Assembly (NCBI GenBank): GCA_008632985.1
Contig: QPGO01000019.1
Span: 372,001 to 436,000, forward strand
DNA: 64,000 bases
DNA from: Psammoneis japonica
Lineage: Eukaryota
Reading direction: 5' to 3'
Position numbers and translations under genes: made by a program. Shown here piece by piece: positions 7,663-41,400 of this stretch (its first letter is position 1; each line of letters starts with the position of its first letter). The notes below the pieces were generated by a model that saw only the letters and a list, made by a program, of their open reading frames with translations, was not told where the DNA came from and made no database searches.

Positions 7663-10600
7663 GTGGTTTCACACGAAAATCACACGGCGTTGGCTTCCGT
7701 TTGCACAAGCAACCGCAGCGCGATAGTTTCTCAGAATAGCAGACGTCGCGCAGGCACTCTTGAGCTCCATTTTCTTCATTCGAATTCAATGCAGACATCA
7801 TGGTGGATTGTGCTTTCCACTGTAAAGTAAAGCAGGAACGTCTCAATCAGTGGCTCTGACAGACAACAAAGCGGCGGATAAAGATAGATGGTGCGCAGAG
7901 GGATAAGCTGCTGGAAAAAAACGATTGTGCTGCTGCGGCACAACTTGATGACAAGGCGACCCGGCGCCATGTGGTCCTGTGCATTGGGGGCACAGACAGA
8001 CGCCACCCGCAGCAGCACATGCATGCATGCATTGCACTGCCACAGATGCCCAACACCAAAATCACAGTCTCGATGTGAAAAGCCTTCAATGACACCAATG
8101 TTGTCTGACTTCATTTCAAAAACATTCGCTTGTCCACTCGTGTTGGTAAATTTCAAGATTCTCTCGCTCTCGCTCGATTGCTCAAGAACAACAACCAAAA
8201 GCACAAAAACCCAAAACACCGGTCGAGTCAGGTCCCACGGTCGGACACACCCAGCATGAGGAATCACAGACAAGCCGGCCAGGCAGATGATGATGTCAAT
8301 GTTGCAGCATGATGATGCTCAGGGCAACAAGCAGGCGTGACAAAATCACATCATTGAAAGTTGAAAGTTGTGAGCGAGTTGACGATGGTGGCGGCGGGAA
8401 GAAGCGAGGTGTCTCGCAGTCACGGATGAGGACGATGTCTCCACGGAGTGTCTCCCAGTCTCACCCCTGTCCCTGCTTTTTGAGTGCTTCTCAAGTGTTG
8501 CAAGACTTAAAAACAAGATCCAATGGCAGATGTGTGGCTCAAGCACAGCTGGCAAACGTCGAGCTTGTGAGCACAAACGCAGAAAACTGCCACATGGTGT
8601 CGCTCCGTGCATTGAAAAACATGCATTGAGCTCCGTTTTCCACCTCAGATGTCAACTCATGCCAACTTGTTAATGACCACAGAGGACAAAATTTCCCCAA
8701 CCTGCCAAAATTGGGACAAACATCGAACGATGGTGTCGGGTGCTGTCAGCACGCTTTGAAAGATTTGCCATCAAGCACAAACTCTTTGCTGCCCTTGCAA
8801 TGGGTTGCGAGCATGCAAGGTGAGAGTTCATCTCTTTTGCCATGCATGTCTCTGCTGAAATTACAGTTGTCAATCTAGAGCCACCTGGGAGAGAATCCAA
8901 CTCCACCTTGGCAAAGGACCTGCTGTGTGGATCGGTTTCAAGAACCCCACAACAACTCCCACACGATTTTCATCACAAAAAGGGAGACAGAGTGGACAAT
9001 CTGCCAAACTGCCGTGATTCAAACTGTCGCTCAGCCGGCAGCTGCTTGCAAAGGTGGAAACTGTCATGTGACAATTGCTTTGCCACAACACACCCAGAGT
9101 GGGTCATTTGAAACTTGAAGACGAGGAGCCCCACAAACTCTTTCGATTGACCAACGACTCCATTGTCATTTTGCAGACTGGTGTTGAAGGGACAAGAACT
9201 TGAATCCCCACCTGCACACTGGAATCTGTTCAATTCCCCATGTTTGTTTCTTTGTGCATGCAACAAGGCTGCCACTGCAGGACTCATGGTGACTTCATGT
9301 GACACCACACAGATGAATCCAATTCTGTCAGTTCATCAGCAACTCTTTGTCATGTCCTTTCTCAACCTCACTTGCCACTGGAAGTCACACTTCCTCCCTC
9401 CATTGCTCCTGTGAGAACCACATCCTCCATCTTTTTTACCTTCCCAATGGCTTCCTCTTGTTTGGAACTTCCGTCCTTTCCTGTCGCTTTGTGAAAGGCA
9501 AGTTGCAAAATGAATGCACTTTGCATGTGATTTTCTTGGTTTTGTCATTGCTTGCGTGTCCTCTCTTGATTCAAACAGGTCTTTGTGTCATTTTTGAGTG
9601 CTCATTCCCAACCCCATGTTTGAATTTCTGTCAACGTTCCACTGTTTTGAATTTTGTGCCTTTGTCAGCCAATCCAACACACCAGTGAAGATTGCAATGT
9701 CATTCAAATCAATGTCAAACAACATGTTGCATCTCCTTGTGTCAGTGCATGCATTGTGCCTGCTTCCTGATGCAACATCTGTTTCACTCGGTTTGCCAAG
9801 TCGTGTCAAACCTCCTGTTTGTTTGCACAAATCCATGTCGCTCATTGTCTCATGTCAATTCATCCCTGTCTTAACAGGTCATTCTCTCTGCTTCCCCGAC
9901 ACCACATCTCTCCAATTGCTCTCTCTGTTGCCCAAATTGTCCAACCCACTTTCAATGGCTGCCAAAGGGTGTCATTGTCACTGAGATGTGGTTGCTGTGA
10001 GTCGCTCCCATTGTGGGAACGCGCGTTCCCTCTGCTGCAATCACATGCCGCCAATTGATGATCAAATTGGTCATTTTGCTGGTGGTGGTGTGGAATCACA
10101 TGGTGGTGCGGCAAGCTTTGCCTTCTTTGCCGAGGTTGTTTGCACAACCCCACTCTCCTTGCGGCCCAAATTCGAAGCCCTTTTAATTTCCTCGACGTTG
10201 GTGGTGGTGTTGGCGGTTTTGCGATTGCCTGTCATTTGCTTGTTCCTGCCTGCAATGCCTGCAGCATCAAGTTCCACCACCCCCGTCATGACTTGGGCTC
10301 TCAGTGGTGCAATGCCATCTGGCACAACCATGCCAGTTGCTGTCCCACCCTGATCAATCAGGGCTTCCTCTCTGAAGATGATGCTGTGCGTTGGTTGCGC
10401 CATCTGAACAACTTAAAGATTTTCTTCAATGACTGCAATGGGCGAATGCTTTTTGACAACAATGCAACACAGAACCAACTCGAGGAGATGCTGTCCAACG
10501 AGTGTCCTGAAGTCACTGTCATCATTTCGTTGGGCGTGATGTTTTGTGTGTGTGCCCACAAATGGAGGCATGGAGCATTCTTTGTTCCTGCCTGTCCAGA

Positions 10601-10847
10601 CAATCTATCGTGGGGAGGTGGTGTCGACAGGCACCTGCTTCACAAGTGCACCAAGAAAAGAGATGATGCCGTGGAGCCAAGGCATTCCACTGGGAACGAC
10701 CTGGGGTCTGACATCAAATGAAAATTCAAGCCTGCCAAAAGTGGGTGACTTTGCAGTTCCCCTTTGTTCACAATGCAACTTTCTTCCATGCAAGCAATGC
10801 ATTGTCAATTGGCCCTTTACACAAACCTGCTTTTTGCCTCTGCCAAC

Positions 10848-11657
10848 TCACTGCTTCACTGGTTTTGCATTCCAACAACCACTTGTTTGCATGCTTGCCA
10901 TGTCGAAATTGTGGACCAGACATGCCATGTTCTTTCGATCTGAATTCGTTTTGTTGGGCAAAGCTCGGTGCAACATTCTTGCATCAAAAACAAATGCAGT
11001 GCCTGCTTCTCCAACCAGCAACTGTTTTTCCAAACCCAACCTGACCAAGTGTCTTTCACGTTCCTTCTCATTCAATGTCACCTCACAACCATCCAGCCAC
11101 ATCTCAACTGCACCATTGTGCTCCGATGTGTCATCGAGGAACAGAAACATGGTGAAAATTTTGATGCCAGGTGACAATTTTGTTTCCACGCAATCACGAT
11201 GAATTTCCCCCTTTGACCAGAAGTTTGATCTTGAACTTGAAGCAGGAGCATTTGCCACTGTGTGCCGGGACATCTTTCTGCACAAATCACCTGCCAGGGG
11301 AAAGCCAGGAATTAACTCCAACATTTTTTCTGCCAACTCAATGCCTTCTGCCTTGTCCTTTTTGTTGATGGTGAACTCACTGACAAAACGGTGTCCTTCC
11401 TTCTCTCGCTTGCTGCTTGGTGCCTTGTTTGCCAGTGTTGTCATCTGGTTGAGCAGGGGTTGTGGTGTTTTGAATTTTTGCAAGCAGCCTTTTTTTCCTT
11501 CCTGGTGCACTCTTTCTTTGGACCCAGCTGTCTTGCTCTTGACGACATGAGATTTCATTTTGCCCGGTTGTGTTGGCAACTTGCCATGTTTCTGACACAA
11601 CGTTGTTGGCCAACGGGCAAATTTCTGGCATCCGTTGACAGAACACTTCCACGCCAT
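10848..11657 (-). pseudogene. 2OG-Fe(II) dioxygenase (PhyH/phytanoyl-CoA dioxygenase-like) with N-terminal CxxxGC..C..HG zinc finger; TpA-mutated
   Basis: MAWKCSVNGCQKFARWPTTLCQKHG zinc finger. IHRD (HxD), FLFLDDTSEHNGA and GEAGTAFVFDARMLHRALPNKTNSDR (distal His and Arg) match the PhyH-type pattern. No Tyr in the ORF. Confidence 0.75.
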
Positions 11658-11763
11658 TCTCTGAAAATGCCTGTTCCACCAAATCAAATGGCACCCAGTC
11701 TTTTTTTTTTTAAGTGAAACAGACCCAATTAAGTGAAAGTCCGCATCCATTGCTGTGCAACGA

Positions 11764-11998
11764 AAACGGCTTTCTTGCCAAATGTGTGTTGCCAATGGCA
11801 GTCCATCTGTCGGGTGCACCACAGACGTTTTTTTCGTGAACAGTCCCGCGTGATGTGATCTTTGTCGATCCTGTTCACTGCAACATAAACGGCTTTCTTG
11901 CCAAATGTGTGTTGCCAACGGCAGTCCATCTGTCGGGTGCACCACAGACGTTTTTTTCGTGAACAGTCCCACGTGATGTGATCTTCGTCGATCCTGTT
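11764..11998. repeat. Tandem duplication, ~123-bp unit x2
   Basis: aaacggctttcttgccaaatgtgtgttgccaa...gtcgatcctgtt occurs at ~11764 and ~11887. Confidence 0.9.
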
Positions 11999-12199
11999 TG
12001 CTGCATGATCTCATCAAATGGGTCATCCCAGCTATCTCAAAAGCGCAGAAAACAATTTTGTTGCACACTGCATTGTTTGTGTTGTTGTGAGACATTTTCA
12101 CATCGCCGCCGCGGCAGACACAAAGGAACAGCCACCATCCACCGTTCATTCCGCACCACAAACAAGCTCTTTTGGAAGAATGCACACAATGAACAATTG

Positions 12200-12430
12200 C
12201 AAATGACAGGCATCACTTTTTTGTTAATGCACCTGTCTGTCAACAGAGCAATTTGGTGTCACTTTTTTGTTGTTGCAACTGTGTGTCAACAAAGCAATTT
12301 GGTGTCACTTTTCTGTTGTTGCACATGTTTGTCAACAGAAGAATTTGGCATCAGTTTTTTGTCAACACACACATCTGTCAACAGATGCCTTTGGCATCAC
12401 TTTTTTATTTGTGCACTCAACACTGGCCTG
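12200..12430. repeat. Degenerate ~45-bp tandem repeats
   Basis: Recurring (tt)tggYRtcacttttt...gtcaaca motif, about five copies. Confidence 0.65.
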
Positions 12431-13193
12431 CACATTGTCATGACATGAAGCACATCTCCCGCAGCAAACCACATTCTCCCGAATCTTGTCCAAGTCGCTG
12501 ATCAACTCATGTTGAGCAGCGAACAGATGATGTTTGGGCAACTCTGTCTCTTGTCCTCTGCAGCCTTGTCACTCCCTTTGCAAAACAACAACCTCAAAAT
12601 GATCCCACCCCAAAGAATGCTGCCCAGTCCCTTGCCTGTTGCGCCACGTTGCCGAAATGGAACCGACGAATCTCTTTTTCGTCCGATGCATTGCACTTCT
12701 TTCCCATGACATTCCACCCGACTCAACCTGACATTGCTTTGCTGCTGCCATGTCCCAAAACAGCATTGACCAACAATCCATCTGGCTGTTGTCCCCCGCC
12801 GGTGCATCTGGCCCCGTTTGGCACAGAAAACAGCCTTGACACCAAATTGAGGCTGTGTCATTCTCCCACACGTTGGGCAAATGAATGCAGTCATGTTCAT
12901 TTGTCACTCAAAAAAGGGGTTTGACAGATCACTTGATCTGCGGCATTGTGCTGATGATGTTTGATGCAAAAATCTTTGCGTTCGAGAGCAGTGGGAAGAG
13001 CAATGTGTGCAACCCAAACCACCTCGGTGAATTTGCAAAATGGCTGGTGCACCCAAGCCACATTAGATTGGCTTTGAAGGAGGCAGCCCTCCCAGAGCTG
13101 GCTCAACAAAAGAAAAAAAAGGCACGCAGAAAAATCATCAATGCGCACTGCTTCCAAACCAAAAAATGCAAAAGATCCATGGCGGCACAGGCA

Positions 13194-13630
13194 AGGGATT
13201 GCATCTTGTGCACTGCCTCCAATTCCCATCTGTTTCTTGCCTGACAAAATTGTTGTTGATGTTTCCTAGAATGAAAGCCATGCTAAAAGTCCAACGATTG
13301 CAACTGGTGTCAATTCTGGTGTGGAGGTTGCCAATGACAACAACAATGACACAACATGGGCGGAGACGGATGTCATGGATGACGAACATCAAATTTTGAC
13401 TGTTGCAGACAGTGAAGAAGTTTTGCCAGTGAGGGATTTCATCTGTCGTGCCACTTCCATTTCCCATCTGTTCCCTGCCTGACAAAATGCATGTTGATGT
13501 CTCCTGGAATGAAAGCAAAGCTCAAAGTCAAACGATTGCCACCGGCATCGACTCCATTCAGGAGGCCACCCATGACAACGACAATGACTCTACATGGGCG
13601 GAGACGGATGACATGGCTGACGAACATCCA
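13194..13630. repeat. Diverged tandem duplication, ~239-bp unit x2
   Basis: ttcccatctgtt..tgcctgacaaaat...acatgggcggagacggatg..catgg..gacgaacatc occurs twice. Confidence 0.85.
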
Positions 13631-14388
13631 ATTGATGCCAGCAGATTGTTGGCAATTGGCGTGGAAGTTGGTGGTGATTTAAATGGAAGTGACAAAGATG
13701 CACGCAACAGCATTCGAACTCAACGCCTGCAGGATCTTGGATGTGACATTTGCACAATTGACAAGAGGATGCGCTGTGCTTCCTCACCAAAGCACACAGA
13801 GTGCGATGTTCTAAGTTTGCACAGATCAGCAGAGTGGAAGAGATTGTCCAAAGAGACAGAGTTCGACCACATTTGCTTTGACTGCATGTGTTCAAACCCG
13901 GTGCATCTCTCGGCTTCAGTTCCAAAGGGACCTTTTTTCCAAGATGCACTCAGGGAGCTTTGCGGTCGCTGACGGATGATGGGATGTTCTTCTTGCCTGC
14001 GCACAATCTTGCGTTTTCCGAGTTTTGGATTGAATGGAAGAAACAACGTGTGTCGGAAGAGCACCCAATTCGCTTCTTGCATGAAGAGCAAGCACACGAC
14101 GAGGTCCCCATCCTTCGAGACGAGGCACAAGTGGACATCTCTGCCTGCAGAAAGTTTTGCACAAGGGAAGAATACATTGAGGATTGTGAGTTAAAACACA
14201 AAGAAGTGAAACGGCTCACACAAACAGGTGAAGCTGCATTGGCACATTTTCCAGATTTCGGGGGTCCAGTCAAATGCATTGGATTAACTGGAAGAAGAAA
14301 GGACCCTTGCTGTGCACCAGTTTTCACCGGTGACAACTGTGTGCATTGTCCAACATGCAGTCTCAAGAGACATGAGCGTTTTCTGTGA
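13448..14388 (+). pseudogene. Frameshifted cargo-like ORF, possibly a SAM-dependent methyltransferase fold
   Basis: EFDHICFDC (FDxIxFDY if TpA is restored) followed across a frameshift by LTDDGMFFLP resembles class I methyltransferase strand-4/5 motifs. Speculative. Confidence 0.3.
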
Positions 14389-14424
14389 TGCCCACATTGC
14401 AGGCCAGCTCCCATCCGGAATGCT

Positions 14425-16897
14425 GTGCAGTTTGATCTTGACTGCAAAGACGTGCCTGACTCAGCATGTGGAACAAACAACAGCAAGAAAACCAAGGAAG
14501 AATCTCTCCTCCAGCAAATCAAACAGTGCAACACCAATCTTGTCAGCTGTTGGAGGCAGAAGGACCAACCACATGGGGTGGGTGGCAAGAACTGGGGTTT
14601 GTTGTTAATGCGCCCCAAAAGCATCAGCAAAAATTTGAACAACAAAAGAGAACTCAAGCGAAAATTCTGCCTGAAACAACCTCACCGGAAGTCCAACAAG
14701 CTGTCTGATGCGTTCGACAACAACATTCCATTCATTGAAAAACCAGGCAGGGAGGGAACAAGGTGTTCCCTCGTCATCCACTTCAAGCCACATGTTGTGG
14801 CACATGGCGCGATGGGTCCGAATGCTTCAAAGCAAGTGTGTCGGCACCTTCAAAGCAAGGCAGAGATTCTACGTTCGGATGCCAACCACCCACACAGGGC
14901 AAGTGATCCAACTCATCCACTCGTTTTGAACCCAGATGCAATGGAGGGAATTGCCGATGATGCCGTCTTCAGGCAGCGCAAGTTTGACAAAAGAATTCTT
15001 GGATCAGGCTTGTCAACACAGCTCAGAACCATTGTTGAACAGGGGCTGAGCAGTGGGTCAGCAAGAGAGTTTTTACTTGCTGCAAAGTTTGACCATTCAT
15101 TTTGAGGGACTGTTGCCAAAGATTTTGGCATGAATGGAGTGCTTGCTCAAGGTTGGAGCTGCCATGGTGGATCAGGTGTTGCAAGGCCTGGAACGACAGA
15201 AAAGGAAAAAGACCTCTCTCCAAGATGATGCAGACAGTGGATTTTGCAACTGACCGTGATTTTGGTTCATGTTGTGTGCCAAAAAGCTTTGCAGGGAACA
15301 CCAAGGTCTTCCCAAGGGGAAATGTCGGAGGAAAGACGAAGGTTGTCTGAGAAACACCAAGTCTGGTTGGGTTGCCCAGAACGATTGCAAGGTGTGTTAA
15401 AGCTTGATGAGGCAGGATCTCACATCACCGGTTTTGCTTTCACACACTTCGATGGGGAAAATGAGTGGGAATTCCTCTTGGATGACATTGGCAACTGTGT
15501 TGTCTTCATTGATGATTGGCGGGATTACAACATTGGTGAAGATTTGGTGGACAAGCTGAAAAGGCATTCGGTCCCCATCACCAACACCACGTTTGACCAT
15601 CTGTCGTGCAACAGAGAGATTGTCAGAATTCAGCTACGAAAGCCACTGTTCAAGACGGATTGTGAACATGCAAATGCCCTGTTCGAACAACTGGAATCCC
15701 CGACAGACAGCTTCAACCTTTCCACTGTGGAGAACAAAGATGACGTTCAGTGCGCTGCCCAGTGTGTTGGGGATCACCTGCAGCGATTTGACAGTGGCGA
15801 CCACAAAGGCATGTTGGGATTGCTTGTTGATGAAGGCAAAGACAGAGACCTTCTCCTGGGATCAATCGCCCACAGCTGGTTCAATTTCACATTTCACTGT
15901 GAGGGGCACGTTGCTTTTCACCATGGAGACGAATTCGCGGCATTTGTGGGCATGGAATTCAAAGGGTTTTCCTCTTGATGCTCTTGTTGCATTGAGAGAA
16001 TCTGTGAAACCCGAAAACCAAGAATCTGTGAAGACTTTGTTGCAGAAAAATGAGATGGGATTGTTGCATCACCGATTGGTGTCGATGATGAAGCAACTGA
16101 AGAACAACGGTGACATGAACGGAACAACGTGTTTGACGTTACAGAGATTTCAACACATGGATCCTTCGTTGACCAACATTGAGGAGATGCGAATCTACTG
16201 TGCTTTCATTTCCAGTCAATTTGATGTTCTGCGGGCAAAGGACACCAATGGAAGTCACAAATCTGCCAGGGAACTTTTGTTTTGTCGCGAAGCCAGGAAG
16301 AACGAACTGCCAAAGCAGTGGCTGCCAAGCACAAGGTTGGGCGATGTGTGCGTGGCTTTGACGATCCAATCGGCTTCCGTCATGGGACAAATCCCCCCTC
16401 AAAATGCAGCAGTGGCACACATGTCCAAGGGTGATTCTGGATTTCATCCATTTGTTAACATGTGTGTTGTTGGGAAAGAAGCACACGCGAGAGGCGAACG
16501 GATCTCCTCGTTGAAGGCAAGGGAGGTTGTTCAAAATGCAGTTGAAGTTGCAAGAAAAAATGGCAGAAGACCAACTTGGGCCAAATGTGACCAACTGGGC
16601 TGCAGGAAATGTCGATCGATGAACAACAAGTTGCGCAAGGATCCATGCCACCTCGTGTCGAGCGAGCGGGGTGTGTCACCCGTTCGCTCTCTGGAACATT
16701 CGAACAAGTCGACAAGCGGTTTGTGGCCTGACAAATTGGAACACAGGATTGAATGTTTCATTTGTGATCAATGGTGTGATTTGTCAACTCATGCCAATGT
16801 TTGCTCTCATGTCAAGTCAAAGCATGACTTGACAAAGCAGAAGGGTTTGCTCCAATTCCGAGAATCGAAACTGAGCGGGACTGACCAGCACTTTTAG
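14425..16897 (+). pseudogene. Degraded long ORF(s) of unknown function with a C-terminal C2H2-like finger
   Basis: Overlapping ORFs 14425-15105, 15244-15978 and 15593-16897. Ends with CFICDQWCDLSTHANVCSHVKSKH. Confidence 0.4.
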
Positions 16898-17175
16898 ATG
16901 TGTCAGCATGCCATTGCTCTTCAATGCACTCACTGATGGAAGGAGCAACATTGCTCTTCAACGTGCTTGCTGACAGAAGGAGCAACAATGAGTGGTGCCA
17001 ACAGATGCTGTTGGACAGGTTGACACACCTTTTACAGCAAACTCATTGGAACAAAGACAGAAGGCTTAAAAAACATTTAAGAACATTTCCTTTTTCCCAA
17101 GGCACGTTGTCGTTTCTCTTTGTCTCGCTTCCTGCATTTGTCTGGGTGAAGCTGGATCACTTTGTTGGACAGGAA

Positions 17176-20100
17176 TTAATTCGGCCAGTCATTGTGTCTG
17201 TCTGCAACAAACAACAATGAGTTCGAGCATCCCAACACTTCAATGTTGTCTTCATTGCAGTTGTCAGGAACAAGGACAGAGAAACCACCCATTGCTGTTG
17301 TGTCTCTGCTGGCATGCCGAAATTTTGGGATCATCTGAGAATCTCTGCCATGACCAACAGTTGTTGTTTCAAGTTCCCAGTGCTCGACCACACCGTTGGA
17401 AGACTTGTCACGTGGCGTCTTTGTCTGTTCCTTGCATGACTGTCCTGCGGCAAGCGGCGTTGTTCCGTCGTCAGCTGACACAAAACCAGGGAGCACAAAC
17501 GGGCACCTTTTTTTCTGACCAGTTCCCTCTTCGTGCAAGACCCTGGGTGTGTTGCACCACAACCCATTGTTGTTGTAATTGGGGTGTGCACGCATTAAAA
17601 TCCCTTTCTCTGGCATGGCAAACTCCGAGCAAACAACTGCTTCATTGTGCTTGGCGGAAAGTTCCTCCGTTGGCAACAACAAAAACTCAAGCAGGGTGGA
17701 GTCCAATTCTGCAGTTTCCAGGATGACACGGATCTTGTTGCTGCCTGAACACTGACAGCAAGTTTGGGCAGTTCTGTTCACATCAAACAAGGGGTGCATC
17801 AATTTTTCTTCAGAGGAATTTACGCTCGCCTGTCCAACCGTGGAAGGGATGAGAAGGCTGTGTGCCTTCTCAAGAACTGCCATGTCATGCAAATGAACAA
17901 CAAGTTGGTCCAAGAAATTGTCTGCACCCAATGCAACCTGGCAAGTTTTTGCCGGAAGCTCAGCCCAGAACTTCAGGTGACTCTCTCCAATCATGGCAGA
18001 GAAATTCGTAATCTGGCCACAAAGGAAAGAGTCGATGATGAGATGCAGCATAGAATGGAACTTGGCAGTCCGGAACAAATGAGTGTTCCTTGCACGACAA
18101 AGGCATGCTTTTATCTTGAACATGAGCAGGGCGACTCGGCACTTGAAATCCACCTTTCCTGTTTTTCCATGGAGACCCTTTCTGTAGAGACAAAACAAAT
18201 GGAAAAGCAGCATGTGATGCAACAAGTCCAACAATTCATCAACTCCACAATCGATGGATTTTTTGGCTGTCGTTTCGTCATCTGCTGTCTTCATAAAAGT
18301 TTGAGGAAGTTTGTTTTCCATTTCTGCACAGATGACAGTGCTTGGCAATTTTGACTTGGTGAGAAGAAAGTGCCGTCTGTCTGCACACCTTGCAAAGTTG
18401 TCCCGATCATCTGCCGAATCAACGACAAGACCATGTGGTCCGGGTGTCGACAATTGTTCAGGTGAAGTCTCAACAGCCCGTTGTTTCCGTCTCAACGATT
18501 TTGTTTCATCCCATGCAATCTTCTGGCACAACAAAAAGCGATCGTTGTCTAGTTGCTTGGAAAATGGTTTCCCAAAATTCAGAAAGGCAGTGACGATGCA
18601 TCTGTTGCATCACACAGTTTCGGTGATGGAGATCAGATGGGTCGCAGGCGACATCAGACCATGTCTCTTTAGGAAGTGCAACCGGCACATTCTCATCAAC
18701 CGGGCTTGTGTTTGTTTTGCCGGTTTGTTCATTGGATGGTTCAACAGGATCAGTGTCCTCATCGTCGGGTCCACTTTCTGACGATTTGGTCAATTGTTCA
18801 TCTTGTTGCTTCTTTCCTTTAAAGCCATCAGCCGTCTTTTTCTTTTTGCTGTCAAAGGTTGGATCGCACCTTTTTTCCAGCAGTTTTCTGCCAGTGTGTG
18901 TGTGACCAATGATTGCAAGTGCAAGAAGCATTCCCATCTTCTCATCACACACAAGTTGACTGAGTGTGGAAAGTCCCCAGTTAACTTGAATTCGCAGGCA
19001 GTCACGTCTCTGACCTGGACGACAATGGGATGTGCAGAAATGCTCAGCTGCAATCCGGTTGCACTCCTCTTTCTGTTTGGCAGACATCTCTCCTGTGATC
19101 ACCTCCATCATTTGAGGGACAATGCCCACCTCCAACACATGCATCATGTCAGCAACAGTCATGCCAAATGCACCACGTGGGTTGTCGCCCATGTCAAGTG
19201 GAAAGCAAGCATTGTCCACCGCGTGCTGTCCAAACACTTTTCTCAAAATTTTGGAGCATGCAGTCATTCGGCAAATGAGGAAGGAAGCCAGCTCAGTCTC
19301 AGCCTTTTTTTTGATGTCATTGTGCGATGCTTCCGGGAAACGCTTTTAACATGCTGGTGCCAATGGCTGTTGTCATCCTCTGGATCTGGGCCCAATGCAG
19401 CTGCAGTGAGCAACTCCATGAAAGCTTGGTCAAAGAATTGGCAGACATGGAGGGGATCATCAGAACGGTGGGAGGGCACATGGCAGTTGTGAGACAACCT
19501 CTTGGTCTTGCTTCAGCCCATGACTCTTCCACAAATGCATTCTTGATTGAGGATGTCCCCCAACAGGGAGTTGCAATGTGTTGCAGCTCTGACACAGCGG
19601 CATTGAGTGCCCATCATTGCACGAACAATGGGTGGATTTGCCTGGCAATGAAGCAGACCACGGAGAACCTCCTTGAGAATGCGGTGACAGTTGGCAACAA
19701 CAAGGCACCCAAGCTTGTCTTTCTTGTCTTTCCTGTCCAAATTGGGCATGAATCCAAGTGGATGCCAACAACGGCAGTCACAGCATGCATCCTCTCGAAT
19801 CATGGCAAGTGAGTGCATTGCAGGCTCCATCCCATGAGGATTGACCACATTGGCTCCGGTCTTGTCCAAGCAATTGACAAGGTGAGCGTGAAAATCAGAG
19901 GCCATTTCCTTGGCATTGGAGCAACGTTGTTGCCACTCGCCATCACCCATGTCTTGACTTTGAGTGGACAATCACCAGTCACCAGGACAATCCGGGAATG
20001 ACATCTCAAAACCGTCAGCCTGGCTGGTGCTGGGATCAAAATTGCCGTCAGTGGGGGGTGGCGCATGAGGTGACCAGACATCATTTGGATTGACCTGCAA

Positions 20101-21398
20101 CTTGGAAAGATCATGGAACACTGGCTCGGTGAAGACATCCTGCAAGGTCTCGGTGAAACTGCAAACTGGGAAAGGTGGGGAGCGACGATGTTTGGGTCCA
20201 CTCTTCTGTTGCTGTGTTGGATTGTTGCATTCTAGCATCACAGCAGCAGTGCGGGGGAGAGGAACATTGGGAAACAGACCTGGGAGTTGCTTCATTGCCA
20301 CGGCGGCAGTGATGGGTGGCTTTGACAAATCCAGTCTTTTTTCTGCATGCTCTTCATGCAAAATTCTCATTGCTTTGTCAACAAAGTCAATTGCAACACC
20401 TGACCGACAACACAAATGCAGCAAACGTGCCATGGGTGCAATGCTGGGTGAGCAGACTGGAGAGGTGCATCAAAATCCTCATCGGGTGCGACATCACGCA
20501 GCGGGCCAAGAGGGTTGTGTTGATCGAGGGAGGAAACAGGCTCTTCCATCGGATGGGAAATTGAGGTGGGCCCACAACTGCCATCGCGATGGTCGGCTCC
20601 AATGAACTCAGGAACATCCACAGGACTGTCCTCTCCAAGGGCGGACACACCATCATCTGCAAACAAAACAAATCGGCAGGCGTTTTGGGAGGCTGCACTG
20701 GCGGCAGCAACGTTGGCGGCTGAACGCAATCGACCAGAGCATCTGACGGAGGGTGGGCACAGTCCATTTCCGGCAGAGGGAGGACAAGCTGGAGAAGAAT
20801 TGTCCGTTGGTGTGGGAGGAGATGGAGCTGGATTCCAAAGGACTTCGGGGAGGGGAGGAGGGGGTTCGTCATCAGAGAAACCAAACCCAGCAGGATCATC
20901 GTGGTCATCCAGTGATTCATTGTCTGGAGGGGGAAGTGCATTGGCGGCAGCAGAAGATGCGGCATGCAGGCAAAGGGACATTTCCTCCTTTTCATGGCAG
21001 GGCAAGTGCTTCTGTAGATGAAGGGCGATGTTGGAAAAGAGGACACGGCAATGGGGGCATTTGGGTTTGTTGGTGTTAGATCCAAGGGAGCCAACGGAGG
21101 CGGAATCCAGAGGATGAGAGGAAAGAGATGTTCCGCCGGATGAAGAAGACAACTGGGTTGCACGGCGCAACTGTGTCAATGGGGGATGGAGACCAGATGC
21201 TGCAGTGCAGTGCCAAGACAGGTGATGCTGCACATTGTTTTTGGAGTCAAATCCACGTTGTCCGCAATGAGGACAACTGAAAGACTTGGTGGAAATGGCG
21301 GAACGGAGGCAGTTAGTTGCAATGTGCCTGCTGAGACCACATTCGGAAAAGAAACCAGTTCGTTTGCACCATGGACAAACAAGACCATCAGACAACAT
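17176..21398 (-). pseudogene. Plavaka-like (CMC/EnSpm-related) transposase with N-terminal C2H2 zinc fingers; multiple frameshifts
   Basis: Motifs in order: LDKTG, HGMEP, PLGFMPNL, GDILNQECICG, ADMMHVLEVGI, KFHSMLH and GESHLKFWA..PAKT. N-terminal CPWC, CPHC and CPHC fingers. Confidence 0.75.
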
Positions 21399-22591
21399 GG
21401 CCGATGTACAGAGATGAAGGAGTTGAGAAAAGAATCGAAAGGAAACAGCGTGTGCAGCAACAATCACTTGGGGATGCAGTGAGGGCAGAAACACAGAGAA
21501 ACAACGTGCGATCGACATGGAAGGTGTCATGGATGGACGGGAAGGAAGGATGGAATGGGCAGGGAGAGAAAATTGAGAAGACAATTAGAATCTACATTGA
21601 CAGATGTGGGCGGCAATTTTGATCCAGAAAGTTGATTAACACACAATCCAGAAATTAAAATGGAGCTGAACACACACATGAGGCTCTTGTCGGATGGGGG
21701 GGCAAATGGCCAAATTGAGGAAAACAGATGTTTGTTGTTGAATGTTTCAGAAATGCTGACTTGACAAATCAGCACGATCTTGGATTAAAGGGAGAGAATG
21801 TCGGGTTTCATTTCAAGAAATCTTGATGGTCAGTGCAGCACCTGGATTGTTGGTGTCCCAGATGACTGGTGAGCTGCACAGCGGGGATCTTGCATCAGAG
21901 TCTGGGTGGCCACAACACCGTGAAGATCAAAGTCTGGAAAACAAAAGTCATGAAAGTTGGTGGCGGTCCTGCTGTTGGATTTATGACAAGCATTGAGGGC
22001 TCCAAAGCTGAGCATTCTGATGTGCCACCTTGTTGTCTCACCTTGGCTTGGGCTCTCCATGGAGAGGCAGACAACTCAGTCCACAGTGCACCAACAGAAA
22101 GCCTTTTCAATGCTCCAACTTTTGTCTGCTGGTGCTTGTCAATGCAAGTGATTTCATCCATTTCCCATGCTGCAACAAGAATCAATGGTGGGGAAGGACT
22201 CTGCAAATGAAGCAACAAACATTGCGCAGCAGCAATGGATCACAATTGACTGGACCATGAATGTCCTTGGTTGTGCCAGGGATTGTTTGATCCAAGGTTT
22301 GTGAGACCAATGCACTCACACATGTGTGCGCTGTTGACCCTTCCAATGATCCTCTGATGCTGGATTTCAAAAGCCAGTTGGTTGGAAAGTCCATGAGATC
22401 TGTTGAAAGCCAATGTGGGTGGTGAGAAAGGAAATGTCTTCCAGGAGTCCCGGTTGAATGCTTTTCGCAAACCTCCATCTGGACGTCCTCCTCGGTCGTG
22501 AATGTCAAGTGTCAATGCCCCAATGCTTGCGCTCACTTTTCATTCTCAAGCAATCAAGACAAAACCTCAAGCAATGCAAAACCCTGTCACC

Positions 22592-23800
22592 ATGACAAAC
22601 AATGACACCAGTGTCCCATCGTGCTCAAGTGATTGCACCATCAAGGCATCCAATGTGAGTGCCAAGGCAAAGAAGATGGTGAGTTCATTTTTTGTGTCGC
22701 AATCTCTCTTGACTGGCACAAGACAATCTGATGCGTGTTGCGGTGCAATGCATGGATTCGTGGTGGGACATGTGGCTTGTGAAGGCATGGGTTCTGCGCG
22801 AGCCTTGGCTGTGGGAAACCTGCTGTTTCAGCAATCTGGTTGTGTCTCTTTCTGGAGCCGTTGGCTTGAGAGGTGACTGTTGTTGTTTTGCTTGAGTGAT
22901 TGAGATGAGCACTGATTTTCTCTCCTCTGCCGTTGCCCCCAGGCTTCGGCACAAATTCTGCGGGACAGCCATTTCAACTGATGACAATGCAAAGCAGACC
23001 TGCATTCATTTCTTGTCATTTGCTGACCACGTTGTCAATTGTCTACATTGTGTGTTCAATCCATTAGAAAGAGAAGGCCAAGGCTCGAAGAAAGACCATC
23101 ATGTCATCAGAGCACGATGAATCTGGTGTTGCTGGAATGGGCAAGCATGGTTCTTCCATTGTTGTTCCTCGCATGAGATCACCTCACACCTTGCTCATGT
23201 TTTGATTTCTCTTTGTGGTTGGTGTTTAACTCACAACAGATTTGATCAAGACCAATGAGTCAATGTCAAAAACCTTTGTCAAGCTTCAGAAAGTCCATCT
23301 GCATGACAACAAGAAATGCGCATGCCACGTCAAACGTTGCCATGAACTCATCGCACATCTTCCACCAGAGTTGCAGGCTTCATTTGGAGAGCAACTCTCC
23401 ACTCATCAAAATTGTTGCCTTTGGTTGATGGATGTTGACCAACCAAGGGAGGAACCTTGCAACAATGAAGAACCCATCACGAAACTTCTTTTGAAGAGCG
23501 CAGCAAGGAACTTGAAGAGCGCAACAAGGAACTTGAAGTGCGCTGCAAAGAGCTTCACAGGCAGGTTGCTCCTCTTAAAGATGCCTTCACTGCACAAGTT
23601 GAATGTCTCAGCAGCATTCAAGATCATGCCAATGAGAAGCTTCAAGCAAGTCGAAAGCAGTGCGACACATTTCAGGCAGAGGCTCACTGTGGATCAATTG
23701 GCAAGGAGGATCATGAACTTGCTGTCGCTCCCAACAACATGCAGCATGGCAGCCCTGACAACAGGAACCACCATTCTTCTTCTGGAAGCAAGAGCTCATT
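22592..23800 (+). pseudogene. Hypermutated paralog of the spliced coiled-coil gene at 25388-26601
   Basis: Exon 1 MTNNDTSVPSCSSDCTIKASNVSAKAKKM|gtgagt. Exon 2 (23068-23140) is 73 nt, the same length as in the paralog. Exon 3 VKLQ...LPPELQASFGEQLS. The upstream region is also homologous. Confidence 0.75.
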
Positions 23801-25387
23801 GAGCTCTTCAGCCTCAGCGTGCATCAAAGCTGGCGGCAGACTTCTGAATGTGGAGGTCATTGTCAACACAGACGGAAGTGGCGCTGCGACTCTCTTTGCT
23901 GAAGACAGAGAAGTGCTTGAAGAGCAAATCCATGACCTTTGCATTGTCTCCAAGAAGGAAGTCGCACCCCTCTTGAAAATTGTTGTGGATCTAGACCACC
24001 TTCTGACCAAGGCTTGCGCGAAACTGCTGGCAAGTCACAAGTGGCCTCGTGAATGAAAGATGGATGTGGAGACTTCCACCCCTCCCTGCGACAGACTCCA
24101 CCTCACCTGCAGTGCTGCATTGCCTGGGGCATGGACTTCTAATGGAAACAGCTTGAAAAGTGGAGGAACTTTGGATGAGAGGGGTCGAAGACCTCCAATG
24201 ATGAGGAAAACTGTGAGTCATCTTCAAGTGGTTCATTGGCCAGTGAGTCAGAGGCAGGGCTCTCTGAACGGTGGGCCATGAATCCAAGCATGGACAAACC
24301 AAATCATTGGAGTGACGTGAGAGACCCATGGACTTGGGGACTGATGATGTCACTTTGCAATTTAAACACTGACTGCAGGAGGACACTGATGAGTTGAGCA
24401 GAGAACCACTTGCACGATGCATTTTGCCTTCATTTGGTTTGCGCCTGCACGGACTGCTTGGCACCAGACTTAGATCCTGCAGCAGAACTTTGAACTCTCT
24501 GCTTCAACTCCTCTCACCCAGTCTTCAAATCTCTCTTCCTCTCCTGCTCCACAGCTTTCCTCGCTCGTTCTTTCTCTCGTTCCATCGTCTGTGCATGCAT
24601 GCTTCACCGCTGAAGCGAAGGACTGAAGGACAGACCCGACTCATCAAAATAATAGAGAATCGCAATCTTGATTCCAGATTCTTGATCAATCATCTCCGTC
24701 ATCAGTCTTCATGTCGGATGACGTTGTGTTTGTGTCGATCTGAAATGAATTGATGTACTATAATGTGTCGATGCTTCGTGCTTCGAGAAAGTAAACGGTT
24801 TTGTTGGTAGATTGAGAACGTGCATTATAGAATAGCTTGCCTGTTGCGGCCGACACGGTGGTGTAGGTGGTGTGGGTTGTGGATTTGCCGAGAAGGCACT
24901 CGTCTCCGGCGTGCTTCATGATGCGTGCACCAGCGCAAGGGAATAATGGGTTGTGGTTTAGCACTCTGGAGCTCAGCTACGTAAGGTTCTTACGCGATAC
25001 CACATCCTCGAGAGGCATTCAAATTATGCCGCAGACATGTCATGTTGGGTGTGGCATGAGCTATGAGCAAGGCATCGAGAGATTTCGTATTTGATCAGGT
25101 GAGCGGAGGCACTTCGTATCTGCTCTAATTGAGGCATGTTGTTAGGAGGAGACGAAAAGCCTGTCTTTCTTAAACGCATGACGTCTTATTGGTGAGAGAA
25201 TCGTGAATGGGTTTTGCCTTTGGAGGAAGGAAAAGTCCGCCTTGAATCCCACTTGAAAACTTTTCGCAAACTTCTTTCGCGCCATCGGTCGTGGCAAGCT
25301 TGGACGGGCGCCAATGCTTTCTCTCACTTTCATTCTTGAGCAATCAAAACAAAACCTCAAGCTTTCTCTGATACATCACCGTTTACC

Positions 25388-26601
25388 ATGGCAAACGACG
25401 ACATCAGTGTCGCGTCCTATTCAAGCGCTCGCACCGTCAAGACATCTAACGTGAGCGCCGCGACCAAGAAGAAAAAGGTGAGTTCGACTTGTTGTAGTAA
25501 TTGTGGAGGCTCTTTCGGAAGTGTCGTGGTCTCTTTGTATAGAACTATCCCTTGTACGTGACGCAATGTATGGATCCGTCGACTTGCTGTGAAGATGCGG
25601 TTGTCTGCCAACGTCTCGGCAATTTCTTTCTTGAATCGCTAGATTGAAAGCGCCTCGTCATACCCCGAGAAAGAGCCGTTATCGAGATGAGCTCCATTTT
25701 CCCTGTGCTGATTGCCGTTACTTTGGGTCGTACGTGGGCTTGGGTACAAATTCTACGCGGCAGCCGTTTCACCGAAGACCGCGAAAAGCAGAGACGCCTC
25801 AGATTTCGTGTCATTTTCCTGACCACGTTGTTGTTTGCGTCTCCCTTGTGCCTTCAATTCGTTAGAAAGAGAAGGCTATATCTCCAAGAAAGGCCATCAT
25901 GGCATCAGAAAGTGATGAATCTTCTGTTCCTGGAATGGGTAAGTTTCTAGACTCCTTTCAACTCTTCCGTGGCCTTCATGTGATTGATTGCTCACCCCTT
26001 GCCCTTGTTCATGATGTCGTTTTCTTTCACCAAAGGTGCGACACTGACTATGGTTGGTGTCGCGGAGATCATTGTGAAGTTGCAGAATACTGGTTTGGAT
26101 GATTACGAACAGTGGAATGAGCATTTTCTTCGATTCAGGCACTTTGTCGGCCTTCTCCCCCCTGATTTGAAAGAGCCATTTCTTCAGCAGCTTTCCAATC
26201 TTATTGATCATCGTGATCGCTTGATCTCTTTGGAGCATCAAACTGCCGAGAAAGAAGAACAGATCAATCGGCTGAAAGATCGAAACGGATGGCTGAAAGG
26301 TCAAAACGGACGGCTTCAAGAGCGCGTGGAAGATTTGAATACAAGGCTTTCCGAGGCAGAAAAGAAGGGCGACCGTGACCAAGCTGAGATGCTCGAGAAG
26401 CTCCGTGAGGTTAACGTACGGGTCAACAGGTCTAGCAAGCGGGCTTTGGAATCGATGAAGCGCGATAATCAAATCATTCCTTCTGCTAACAAAAAGGCCC
26501 GTACTGCCTCTTCACCCGACACCGTTTCACGTAACGGCTCGTCTTCGTCCAGCAGCGACTCGAATAGGACTGCAGTGTCCCCACTACGAGAAGCGTGTTA
26601 A
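25388..26601 (+). CDS. Three-exon coiled-coil protein of unknown function (exons 25388-25477, 25866-25938, 26036-26601)
   Basis: GTGAGT and GTAAGT donors with AG acceptors join in frame: MANDDISVASYSS...KKKK|KEKAISPRK...PGMG|ATLTMVGVAEIIVKLQ. The exon structure is conserved in the neighbouring paralog. Confidence 0.65.
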
Positions 26602-28895: not shown

Positions 28896-29289
28896 AATGT
28901 GCTCCAGCTCCAGGTGGGACCTTGCACTGCTGAGCTGTGTGACATCGACAGTTTTTTGGATTGTGCCGCATGTTGCACAAGTGGAAAGGTGTGCAACTTT
29001 TATGACAACATGTGTCATTTTGTGGTGCACTTGTTGAGTGATCCATCCAACAACTTCTGACATTTTTTGTTGCAGTGCAACATTCTGCAATGTCTCAAGA
29101 GTTGTGCAGGGCAGGTGCATTTGCAAAAATGTCGAGTGGCAAGAGGCACAATTGTGCCACAAACTTGGCCACTCATTTGATGTTAAAGACAATTGCATCC
29201 ATTGATGAAATTCTTGCACTGTGGAGCTTGCGCGCAGAATTCTGTGGGCCCAATGTCACACGGACTCCCACCCAGGACTGGAGCCCGTC
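28896..29289 (-). mobile_element. ~395-bp MITE, copy A (TSD cacc/cgcc)
   Basis: Termini aatgtgctccagctccaggtgggac ... ctcccacccaggactggagcccgtc. Reverse-orientation homolog of copies at 53299, 54173 and 59105. Confidence 0.8.
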
Positions 29290-29469
29290 CGCCGCCTCTT
29301 CCTCTGTGCAAGATCATTGACAAGGCCCAGGGCTTGACAGCTGTTGCTGCTGTCAAGGCCTTTCTTCATGACTTTGATCCCAGGGCAAAGCCACTGCATG
29401 CTGCAAGCAGCAGCATGCCTGGCTCCGGCATTTCTGCCAAGCCCTCATGAGTGTGCAGAGGAGCTGTTT

Positions 29470-29915
29470 GCAACACACAGCTGCTGACAAGAGTCAATGC
29501 ATCACGGCGACGTGTTGCAGCCTTTAAATGTCACAAAGGGCATGACAAAAATGATGTTTTGTCTGCACGCATGCTGCGCCATGAATTCACAGCGGAGTGG
29601 TTCATCGCAACCATTGGGCAGGAGGCCAGGGGTTCGAAACCCTGAGCGGGAGTTGTCTGCAGCAACGTTGATCACTGTCGAACGCGCAAAACTCTGTGCA
29701 GTTCTGCACGTTCCTTCGTGCGCACCCACACTGTTCCGCCAAAACCGTGCAGTGTCAGCACACGTTAGTAAAGAGCCGCATGGACGCATGACACATGGGG
29801 AGGAGTGCAACACACAGCTGCCAATGAGAGTCAATGCATCACAGCAACGTGTTGCAGCCTTTAAATGTCACAAAGAGCGTGACAAAAATGGCCTTTTGTC
29901 TGCGTGCATGCTGCA
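29470..29915. repeat. Dispersed direct repeat, ~110 bp x2
   Basis: caacacacagctg...gagtcaatgcatcac...gtgttgcagcctttaaatgtcacaaag occurs at ~29471 and ~29808. Confidence 0.85.
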
Positions 29916-30055: not shown

Positions 30056-31343
30056 CCCTTCAACCACCAGGGGAGCAAATCTCCGCGGGTGGAGATTTGC
30101 TCTGCTTGCAAATTTGTGACGTGTCATGCACTTTTACAATGTTGCAATGAAGACAGCACAAAAATGTCATTCCACGTGCAATCTGCACAAAGTGTGCCAA
30201 GCGCACTTGCTCATTGGGAGCAAATCTCCGCCGGCAGAGATTTGCTCTGAGGGTGTGGCATTGTTGCTCCATTTGTGACAGCAATTCATGATGACCTCCA
30301 TTGTCAAAGGTTGAGATTTGGTTCCTCTCTGCTCATGGACGAAGCTTGCAAAAAACCCAGCATCAAGGATGGATCCACGTGCTGCGGTCTGTTTTTTGGG
30401 AGCATGCAATTTTTACAAAAATGACCCGGATGCATTGCATCAAATGTGGGCGCATTCGCAAAACAATTTTCAGCGATGGGTCAAACTTTGTCCATTTGCC
30501 AGACACCCTCTAGAGTGCTTGAATGACAGGTGTGGCCATGTGCGACTTTTACCTTGTCGACTGCAGACATGTCTGCAGCCAGTCAAATGCCACTTGTCAG
30601 CATGTTTCCCGGAAAGTCGCCGCCAATCTCCCACAAGAAGCCCGGTTTTAGCAAAAATTGGCGGTTTTTTTGACCTGACAACAGGGCACAGGCCGACAAG
30701 TGGCATTTGAAGCACCAAATGTGCAGCTCTTAAAGCCATCTGACAGCCCCTGTGAGGGTTTGATGAGTGCACAAGTGTTCGGGGGGGGGGGGGGGGGGGG
30801 CATTCCAGCTCCAGGTGATCCGCTTTTCATCACGCGAGAGGCCGATTTTCTGCGCAGTTTGGCACAATTGACTCCTTCAACTTTGATCGTTTCGAAAATC
30901 GAAAGGTGGGTGAGTGCACACCCGAAAACACATGCAAAGTGCACACTTGCCCTTCGATTTGGCAAAAAACAGATTTGGAAAAAGTCAATTGTGCCAAATG
31001 CACAAATTGCCAAATGATGGAAATCGAACCCGCTCGGAGCACCTGGAGCTGGAACAGGCCGGGGGGGTGTTCCGAGGCAGGTCAAAACAACACGATGAAG
31101 TGCGGGAAATGCAAGCCATTTTAAATTAGACCACAGCACGCAGATCCATTTAAAAGTCGACATTGAACTTTCTCAATTGCAAAAAGGGTTCCCCCAGATT
31201 TTCGGCAAGTGCGCGTTTCAAAACAAAATCGCGAATGAAACATGTGCACATTGTCTGAAATTGCTCAATTTACTGCATTTGTGACGCAAGCGAGCAAATC
31301 TCCACCCGTGGAGATTTGCTCAAGCCCCCCGGTGGTTGAAGGG
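30056..31343. mobile_element. Non-autonomous TIR element with piggyBac-like CCCTT termini
   Basis: TIR cccttcaaccacc (30056) / ggtggttgaaggg (ending 31343). Subterminal 30-bp palindromes gagcaaatctcc-N6-ggagatttgctc at 30073, 30218 (imperfect) and 31292. Flanks ctgg/ttag are not a canonical TTAA. Confidence 0.75.
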
Positions 31344-36868: not shown

Positions 36869-37347
36869 TCCTCATCTGCGTAGCACCAACAGATCAATGT
36901 CCTTCGTAAGCGATAGAGAGAGTCCTTAACAAGGAAGTAAGTTTGCCACGTAAGATCGTCGGATGAAGAAGATCTTGTTGTCAGAGATGGAAATGATGCA
37001 GAGATACACGTGTACCATCAGCGCAACGATTTCAATCGCGGTTGGGTGCGTCTGATGACGAGTATGGCTCCAACTTCCGAACGATTTTGCGGGGGGGGGG
37101 CGCTGTTTTTACTTAAGGCCCCCCCACGAAATTCAACCTCATTTAAGCACCTGTGACATCCCCCCCCCTCATACAAAAAATCCGTAGAAGTGACAGTCGT
37201 CGTCGCGCGCCATCTTTTTGGCCTTTTTCTGGAACGCTTTTCATAACAACGACCCTCATCGTTGTTGCAAGTGCGTGCTTCATACTTCATTGACACCTTT
37301 CCTTTTCAACAAGGGTTTGTCAAGAGCCCCTTTGTGTTCTCATTGCC

Positions 37348-40300: not shown

Positions 40301-40668
40301 CCTTCCAAAGGCATCAAGAATTGAATTCCGCACCGCCTGCCCCAATCCTCCCCATGCCGGCACCAGCTCTGCCATTGCTGCCTCTGCTGCCTGTTCCTGT
40401 AACAAATTTGCCAATGTCATTGCAGCAACCTTTGGGCCCACCCACTGTTGCGTCGTCGATGCCACATTCAACCTGCTGCCAACCCGTTTCTCTTGGGACA
40501 GCGAGTTTTGCAGCATCTGCTCCTGTGCTGCCATCCGCTGTCACTCCAGCTACAAAGAGACGAAAGGTCAAAGAAGAAGAACACTGCTGTGAGGGAAGAA
40601 AAAATCATGTCGAAAATGGTCGTCGGGGGCGGGTCGCTCATGCCTTGTGGTGCAACCGAGGAAAGTAA
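37348..40668 (+). pseudogene. Putative DDE transposase (unit 1); frame open but Tyr codons almost all mutated
   Basis: Motifs FDHTH, HTDAWP, RLGSFHAIQR and KGESSLEKFH suggest D-D-(xxH)-E order (Dada/MULE-like, tentative). I find only two Tyr in 1106 aa. Confidence 0.6.
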
Positions 40669-40939
40669 GGCGTTCTTGGTGTCTTTTTGTTTTGTTCTTT
40701 TTTCCATTTGTGTTGGTGCACATCACATTGCCACTTCCCAGCATAGATGCATTAATTCAGGATTGGGATCCAACACAGTGGCAACAAACATTTTACACTT
40801 GTACAATTACACCGGTCCACCACACCAACCATCACCGCGCCGCACCGACCAACACCAACGGCACGGACAGCACGGACACCAAGGTCCCATAAAGCCGGTA
40901 GCCTGTCGCAGCCCCACAGCAGAAACAAAGGAACAGAAA

Positions 40940-41400
40940 CAACAAAATTGAGAACACGACAACAAAGAAACAGACCCATGACACTCGACACATTTCTGTT
41001 GCCTCACATCAATGCTTTTGGAGTGCCCTCGTGGTGCTTGTGGTTGATTGCACTAAGCAACACTGTCGGCCGAAAACAAAACAAAACACTGTCCAATTAA
41101 AAGGAACAGAAACAACAGAAATGTAGAAGGTGCCATCAAAGAAACAACCCCATCATGCTCGACACATTCATGTCACCTTGTCTTAATGATTTCGGTGCAT
41201 CCTCACAGTCCTTGTGGTTCATTGTCAGCAGCAATCTTGTCGGCGGCAGAAAACAAAACTCAAAACACACGCTCCATTTAAACACAATGGAAACAAAAGA
41301 AATTTAGGAGACACCAACAAAAAAATACAACCATCACACTCAACACAGTCTTTGCACCTTACATCAATGCTGTTGACCCTCGCATCGTCACAGTGATGGT
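40940..41400. repeat. Diverged ~180-bp subterminal repeats (about 2.5 copies, present in each array unit)
   Basis: Recurring ccatca..ctcRacaca...Yaatg...ttgtggtt.attg...tgtcggc..aaaacaaaac blocks. Confidence 0.6.

Follow-up and report, generated by a model that had tools for sequence, protein, structure and literature searches.

Organization of the Plavaka-type element

The window analyzed here is a 64,000-nucleotide stretch of the 91-Mb genome of Psammoneis japonica (contig QPGO01000019.1, positions 372,001 to 436,000; G000:C16:372001-436000). It contains a portion of a DNA transposon of the Plavaka type, in which the transposase is accompanied by a zinc-finger + PhyH-type 2-oxoglutarate (2OG)-Fe(II) dioxygenase, referred to below as the oxygenase. 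The original prediction, made from the letters of the window, described these two genes as neighbors on the minus strand within one mutated block and proposed that the oxygenase was transposon cargo. Both open reading frames (ORFs) indeed lie on the minus strand in a single block, from about 8 to 24 kb, where the observed/expected ratio of TpA is 0.00 to 0.15 per kb. The two genes belong to the same element, but they are not adjacent: 5.4 kb and a broken plus-strand gene separate them. The mutated block is also larger than the element and by itself is therefore no proof of linkage; the proof comes from the common termini.

When the window was compared with 40 genome stretches by blastn, collinear copies with sharp common ends were found, and the right end was placed at window position 21864. 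The portion of the element in the window spans 9196..21864 (no strand). The window copy is truncated on the left at 9196, with the loss of about 1,433 bp including the left terminus. This break was found in the window copy only. The other copies continue for about 1,433 bp beyond it and share a left end, which gives the full element a length of about 14.1 kb. Both ends start with CATCTGGGAC, giving terminal inverted repeats of the form CATCTGGGAC..GTCCCAGATG, i.e., 5'-CA..TG-3'. The right repeat of the window copy, of the CATCTGGGAYRCCAAYRATC family, is at 21845..21864 on the minus strand. The 20-nt terminus pattern had 74 exact matches in the genome, and the reversed control had none. In 15 copies for which both ends could be read, the target duplication was 2 bp in 12 (CA, AA, TG, AG, or TT) and 3 bp in 1, and it was absent from 2.

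A genome search with the oxygenase returned 68 matches; merged by position, these represent 42 loci. An exact inward-facing terminus was present within 25 kb at 37 of the 42 loci (about 0.01 expected by chance per side; 1 of the 37 was counted by the terminus of an adjacent copy). Both termini were found at 18 loci, and the C-terminal part of the transposase was found upstream on the same strand at 13. Five loci lacked such a terminus. The first lies where a contig begins and shows linkage to the middle gene of the element; two others have the element's methyltransferase gene alongside; a fourth, in a different TpA-poor region rich in oxygenases, is a homologue with 35% identity; and the last is only a weak, incomplete match. 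Thus, the proposal of cargo status held: the oxygenase co-occurs with the transposase between common termini in other copies, and its copies are not a set unlinked to Plavaka. Many copies of the element are internal-deletion derivatives that have retained the oxygenase, a feature that need not mean selection because the gene sits near the element end. The window contains a decayed copy of a cut-and-paste Plavaka (CMCT-group) transposon that bears a fixed cassette of accessory genes.

Two side observations concern individual copies. At C24:216054-236200 (L051-L053), two copies in inverted orientation are joined through their broken transposases. The copy on C267 (L164 and L066; G000:C267:66341-77000), which is interrupted by an insertion resembling a long terminal repeat retrotransposon and by a deletion, is the least altered natural copy.

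The transposase

The window transposase, a Plavaka-like DDE protein with N-terminal C2H2 fingers, runs from an ATG at 21398 to 17077 (17077..21398, minus strand) in six pieces with frameshifts and stops. Those pieces that were scanned gave no match to the Pfam Plavaka model (PF18759). A less mutated copy that is 90% identical to the window (L164 on C267) matched PF18759 with an E value of 1.8e-5 and 24.6 bits, 1.7 bits short of the cutoff of 26.3 bits, and it aligns with a relative, L080, that exceeds the cutoff. The motifs aligned with those of the Pfam-positive relatives, with a D..D..E triad and an H-x3-H before the E (DKTG, GD, KFHSMLH, and GES). In the C(2)C motif after the second D, the second Cys alone is conserved, as it is in L080. 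The terminal CATCT shares four of five bases with the CATCA of PlavakaB. The Plavaka-like assignment thus stood, though the scanned window pieces missed the model, and in its sequence features the element fits the Plavaka superfamily of the CMCT group.

A second Plavaka family in this genome (L071-L077, on C39, C34, C262, and C176) is 30 to 45% identical and has the same transposase and middle-gene layout. The oxygenase slot is filled there by an unrelated 321-amino-acid ORF (L072:9038-10000, minus strand) with no Pfam assignment.

The oxygenase is a PhyH-clade protein of a distinct family

The oxygenase gene occupies 10887..11657 on the minus strand and encodes 256 amino acids in the family. 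It starts at an ATG at 11657 with a finger (C-x4-C-x10-C-x2-H) followed by a PhyH-like domain containing HRD...H...R. The predicted end at 10848 proved to be a readthrough of codon 257, the stop of the family: of 14 other copies, 13 have TGA there and one has CGA, and the window has CAA. A Pfam scan of the window protein returned PhyH (E = 2.9e-4) and Zf_WRKY19 (E = 0.004). The Cys and His residues of the finger and the HxD...H...R residues (metal triad and 2OG-binding Arg) are intact in the window copy.

A profile built from nine sequences found 127 proteins at an E value of ≤0.001, 60 of them at ≤1e-10, among 1.84 billion. We then aligned 41 homologues with three genome copies. The H, D, and H of the metal triad were invariant in all 44 sequences, and a family motif, AP..S.RSN.W..G, preceded the triad. 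A PhyH match was obtained for 43 of the 44 and a Tet_JBP match for none at an E value of ≤0.01. Since PF12851 (Tet_JBP) matches nothing in this genome and is insensitive there, the verdict that the protein is not of the TET/JBP type rests on the positive PhyH assignment. A ParB domain was absent among the Pfam matches of the 44 members, the N terminus being a 24-residue C3H finger and a basic linker. The finger pattern was present in 36 of 69 long homologues, and the median pI was 9.5, in agreement with the earlier description of a putative nucleic-acid-binding finger. One homologue is fused to a helicase-associated (HA) domain (E = 3.6e-13).

Structural comparisons pointed the same way. The structural model had a weak predicted local distance difference test (pLDDT) score of 52.8 and showed a double-stranded beta-helix fold, with PhyH-clade small-molecule dioxygenases as best matches. 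The family profile matched PhyH-clade enzymes in the PDB, the best being AviO1 (E = 1.3e-7), and the top ESM Atlas clusters were named phytanoyl-CoA dioxygenases. Identity to any solved structure was below 17% in the fold searches. Like the PhyH-clade dioxygenases (PF05721: PHYH, PHYHD1, EctD, AviO1/EvdO, and KanJ), the family has the fold, the HxD...H triad, the distal Arg, and the NG and 'D.r..H...pN' motifs. It differs from them as a short basic zinc-finger protein with its own pre-triad motif and a mobile-element location. The oxygenase is thus a PhyH-clade enzyme and not a TET/JBP enzyme, as had been proposed.

A quick tree comprised 75 rows, namely 29 host PhyH genes, 4 genome copies, and 42 homologues, each of 200 amino acids or more, from the top 58. 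In it, the oxygenase family formed one side of a long branch against the host genes with an SH-aLRT of 100, a result favored by the choice of the family rows by similarity to the query. The oxygenase therefore did not group with the metabolic PhyH enzymes of the host, and the family is distinct: basic, with a zinc finger, and separate from the host PhyH genes. Between subfamilies, transversions were found at 14 of 34 four-fold sites and 18 of 199 second positions, and a second comparison gave 16 of 31 and 35 of 190. This excess at four-fold sites indicates past purifying selection on the oxygenase. Because the metal triad is invariant, the intact members of the family are very likely to be active hydroxylases.

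Some searches gave nothing. A word-indexed homologue search with the window oxygenase confirmed 0 of 272 candidates, a search for longer fused forms confirmed 0 of 6,675 and is weak evidence, and a profile made of the genome copies only had no match in the PDB. Three near-identical PhyH matches (C368, C156, and C384) were set aside, the one examined being an unrelated, unmutated PhyH gene. The 35%-identical homologue mentioned above (L086, L142, and L143; C275:27000-54500) lies in a long TpA-poor region beside two further HxD-type oxygenase-like ORFs, and no recognized transposase is present in that region.

Other genes and repeats of the element

The original prediction did not include two further genes of the element, a methyltransferase and a truncated fifth gene. 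The methyltransferase (10062..10721, plus strand, start not fixed) is a predicted DOT1-like class I S-adenosylmethionine (SAM) enzyme arranged tail to tail with the oxygenase. Its frame at 10062-10721 had no majority stop across 15 copies and contains a GxGxG-type SAM motif. The Pfam DOT1 model (PF08123) matched one of nine copies, over 125 residues (E = 0.0099; 15.9 bits against a cutoff of 23). With divergent relatives included, the profile had as its best PDB match 9ne1, an H3K79 methyltransferase (E = 6.5e-4), and it recognized one of three host DOT1-like genes above 300 shuffles (E = 8.7e-5). Like DOT1/DOT1L H3K79 methyltransferases, the protein has what we take to be SAM motif I, an acidic position after strand 2, 'FL', and 'F.NN'. 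Unlike them, it falls below the Pfam cutoff and is a small stand-alone domain on transposons, the likeness being one of sequence. A 38%-identical family of relatives occupies about 30 loci in the genome. At the one examined, L176 (C18:704000-713500), the DOT1-like gene is accompanied by a Helitron gene and a TET-like ORF.

Between the oxygenase and the transposase is the broken middle gene (12800..16897, plus strand, start approximate), one large accessory gene or several, with an N-terminal alpha/beta domain and a Cys-rich finger. It is present at 23 to 35% identity, in the same position, in the second Plavaka family. The alpha/beta domain resembles a methyltransferase as judged by eye only. 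When the gene was read by eye, an N6-adenine methyltransferase, a SET domain, a CW finger, and a helix-hairpin-helix were considered, but none of these gained support, and there were no Pfam matches. None of 1,468 candidates was a homologue, the model (pLDDT of 37.6) gave no meaningful fold match, and neither the comparison with metagenomic partner genes nor an ESM Atlas search with the Cys-rich half (not the alpha/beta domain) gave a match. No TET/JBP gene was detected within the element by PF12851 or by eight TET-like or other oxygenase queries, both of which are insensitive tests.

A 5' stub of the left-most gene remains at 9196..9332 (minus strand). Its ORF was read in three other copies, the remainder being in the part missing from the window, and it has a homologue at the same end of the metagenomic Plavaka locus L158 (E = 3e-5). 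Two repeats (no strand) complete the element: a 123-nt direct repeat in two copies (11745..11990) just upstream of the oxygenase start, and a tandem array of about four 46-nt units (12209..12415) between the divergent oxygenase and accessory genes.

Relatives of the oxygenase on transposons in metagenomes

A metagenome scan gave 24 pattern matches, which corresponded to 19 oxygenase loci. According to blastn of 13 of these, the set represents about 11 groups, 5 of them with at least 5 kb of sequence. At L146, the oxygenase, a SET gene (E = 1.8e-6), and a MULE transposase (E = 6.4e-13) are all inside 33-nt inverted repeats, and the match to a second contig starts at this 33-nt repeat; no target duplication was seen at the ends of L146. 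At L158, the oxygenase accompanies an open-frame Plavaka-like transposase (E = 8e-27 to the second Plavaka family of the genome; PF18759 E = 0.0019) with a CATCAG start and subterminal repeats; its right end was not found. ORFs of L149 and L160 match each other (36%; E = 2e-87) and have no match to Pfam or to the transposase profile; by their motifs, they are probably EnSpm/Plavaka-type transposases. Both loci have additional oxygenase-like genes, as judged by eye. No transposase was seen at L150, where direct repeats that are 92 to 94% identical (L150:735-1796 and 8744-9538) flank genes upstream of the oxygenase. The 3.6-kb L151 combines a SET gene (E = 1.9e-5) with a second oxygenase, which is weakly similar to Naegleria TET (E = 0.26).

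Among 30 adjacent metagenomic ORFs scanned, there was no metabolic gene except one tRNA-ligase fragment. Short patterns gave 37 matches in viral contigs and 3 in prokaryote genomes, none of which was confirmed as a relative of the oxygenase. The oxygenase thus recurs on two transposon superfamilies, Plavaka and MULE, beside lysine-methyltransferase-like genes.

Hypermutation and decay of the element

From about 8,000 to 24,600 in the window, TpA is depleted to the values given above, compared with about 0.5 in the flanking host genes, and about half of the CpG has been lost. The depleted block exceeds the element on both sides. Mixed CA/TG columns among the copies indicate two converging processes, TpA to CpA/TpG mutation and CpG decay. 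The C267 copy escaped most of the hypermutation (TpA about 0.5) and fixes the direction of mutation: of 82 TpA steps in its transposase region, 68 are CpA or TpG in the window. Elements without the oxygenase are TpA depleted too, and we therefore draw no tie between the oxygenase and TpA mutation. Intact oxygenase homologues are found in DNA with normal TpA, at ratios of 0.62 for both L146 and L158. A similar mutation process has been reported in Bigelowiella, with a deaminase proposed as the cause in the accessible part of the preprint (bioRxiv 10.64898/2026.01.13.699255).

Comparison with known transposon cargo

The novelty implied by the original prediction was too high. According to the accessible text of a preprint, giant Plavaka elements of the red alga Bostrychia moritziana carry accessory genes PAG1-3, of which PAG2 is an N6-adenine methylase-SET fusion and PAG3 combines a ParB-like domain with a putative 2OG oxygenase whose best HHpred match is 2OPW, E = 0.016 (bioRxiv 10.1101/2025.02.11.637652). 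Because the 2OPW entry is human PHYHD1, a PhyH-like oxygenase on Plavaka has a precedent. As far as that text describes them, the red-algal elements are like ours in their large size, putative 2OG oxygenase cargo with a DNA-binding-type N-terminal domain, tandem repeats beside the oxygenase gene, methyltransferase partner, degenerate copies, and cargo common to Mutator and other elements. By description, PAG3 has ParB where our family has a C3H zinc finger; the partner here is DOT1-like instead of an N6-adenine methylase-SET fusion, the host is diatom-like, and the repeats here are direct. The diatom-like nature of the host was judged by eye from an ORF resembling a fucoxanthin-chlorophyll protein in another stretch of the genome.

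The accessible part of Kojima 2025 (PMC12730594) gives PlavakaB termini of CATCA..TGATG and target duplications of 2 to 3 bp. Our element resembles the fungal TET+ PlavakaB described there in its CA..TG termini starting with CATC, its 2-bp (rarely 3-bp) duplications, its DDE transposase with H-x3-H, and its single 2OG oxygenase cargo with a proposed anti-silencing role. It differs in having a PhyH-clade oxygenase, CATCT termini, only the second Cys of C(2)C, and an added DOT1-like cargo gene. The novelty lies in the host group, in an architecture with a zinc finger, in the DOT1-like partner, and in the definition of a family that includes open-frame members. No paper on this oxygenase family or on diatom Plavaka cargo was found in a literature search in which subscription journals were thinly covered.

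Fungal transposons are known to carry epigenetic enzymes (TET/JBP), and such cargo has been proposed in red algae (PAG2/PAG3); the PhyH-like kind has hitherto been based on one weak HHpred match. The family described here has more than 100 divergent members with an invariant active site and a place within transposon ends, and open-frame oxygenase genes in unmutated DNA (L146 and L158) are directly assayable.

Proposed role of the oxygenase and alternative explanations

We lean modestly toward the view that the oxygenase is an anti-silencing cargo, tethered by its finger and hydroxylating a DNA base or a chromatin protein to the advantage of the element. The finger and basic linker would tether the enzyme to DNA, plausibly to the element's own repeats. 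Its substrate would, as a tentative first choice, be a methylated or otherwise modified DNA base; a residue of a chromatin protein is a less probable alternative. Together with the DOT1-like methyltransferase, it would keep the element expressed and mobile against host silencing, a role that has been proposed for the fungal TET/JBP cargo. In this genome, the host would later have prevailed: mutations at TpA and CpG were present in all of the copies examined. A bolder form of this view seems possible but doubtful to us: the family would join TET/JBP and AlkB as a third lineage of DNA-base oxidases, derived from the PhyH clade and passed among the Plavaka/Mutator transposons of diatom-like algae, and by writing or erasing a mark on bases of the element itself it would evade silencing or TpA-directed mutation. 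We know of no PhyH-clade enzyme shown to modify DNA, and a literature search gave none. If an activity on DNA were true, the family would add to the known writers or erasers of base marks and offer a way to study how transposons counter defense in diatoms; if the substrate were a small molecule, it would be merely one more cargo gene.

Several observations weigh against the anti-silencing view. The substrate is one that we infer from context. The top fold and profile matches are all small-molecule enzymes (AviO1, EvdMO1, GriE, KanJ, and proline and ectoine hydroxylases), and nucleic-acid enzymes of the AlkB/FTO type rank lower in the fold search (Z of 6.5 to 7.6 versus 9.7). HxD is changed to HxN in 7 of 14 oxygenase copies, and the separation from host PhyH genes in the tree is subject to the selection of rows noted above. 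In the second Plavaka family, whose layout is the same, the slot is taken by an unrelated gene and the oxygenase profile has no match, so the oxygenase is dispensable for the Plavaka lineage. The element was mutated despite the oxygenase, all copies examined being hit at TpA and CpG, that on C267 much less. The DOT1 assignment depends on moderate E values, and the scores of the remaining two host DOT1-like genes did not exceed those of shuffles. Finally, among the five metagenomic groups with at least 5 kb, a transposase is proven in two, probable in two, and absent from one.

It is somewhat unlikely that the oxygenase, while being true cargo, acts off chromatin, on RNA (element transcripts or small RNAs) or on a host defense protein. 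Basic fingers are able to bind both RNA and DNA, and the fold matches include PhyH-like folds from an RNA-editing complex and a poxviral protein (8fnc and 8ag3; Z of 8.1 and 8.5), but the genes repeatedly found with the oxygenase encode methyltransferases of the SET and DOT1 types and TET-like oxygenases, and one homologue is fused to the HA domain. We consider it unlikely that the enzyme is a small-molecule (metabolic) hydroxylase, captured once and kept as a passenger or host-benefit gene. The PhyH-clade fold, the natural-product and amino-acid hydroxylases as best PDB matches, and the phytanoyl-CoA dioxygenase names of the top ESM Atlas clusters would suit such a hydroxylase; its finger, high pI, and position outside the host PhyH genes, its presence on two transposon superfamilies, and the 30 neighboring ORFs free of metabolic genes bar the tRNA-ligase fragment all argue against that reading.

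A tie to TpA-directed hypermutation, as its cause or in the repair of an intermediate, is very improbable: all copies examined are TpA depleted, with 68 of 82 steps now CpA/TpG in the window, but elements that lack the oxygenase, and DNA beyond the termini, are depleted as well, intact homologues lie in normal-TpA DNA (L146 and L158), and a deaminase is the cause proposed for Bigelowiella in the accessible part of that preprint (bioRxiv 10.64898/2026.01.13.699255). That the oxygenase and transposase are chance neighbors in a heap of nested repeats, as their 5.4-kb spacing, the width of the block, and the missing left end might suggest, is refuted by the collinear copies, common termini, and target duplications.

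Additional observations on the window and on TpA depletion

Most other repeats in the window are likewise TpA depleted with a gain of CpA/TpG. The metagenomic loci L149, L157, and L162, from other organisms, have TpA ratios of 0.17 to 0.24, indicating that the mutation process is not restricted to this genome. Three tandem units about 4.57 kb apart (37294-49171) are TpA depleted, and each contains one long plus-strand ORF (up to 1,124 amino acids), for which no convincing Pfam match was found. Repeats of about 390 to 440 bp (28903-29290, 29469-29915, and 30365-30785) recur as insertions within several copies of the element and are probably small non-autonomous elements. A duplication spaced by about 2.8 kb (22424-23145 and 25223-25943) provides a natural comparison for the mutation process, since one copy is TpA depleted and the other is not.

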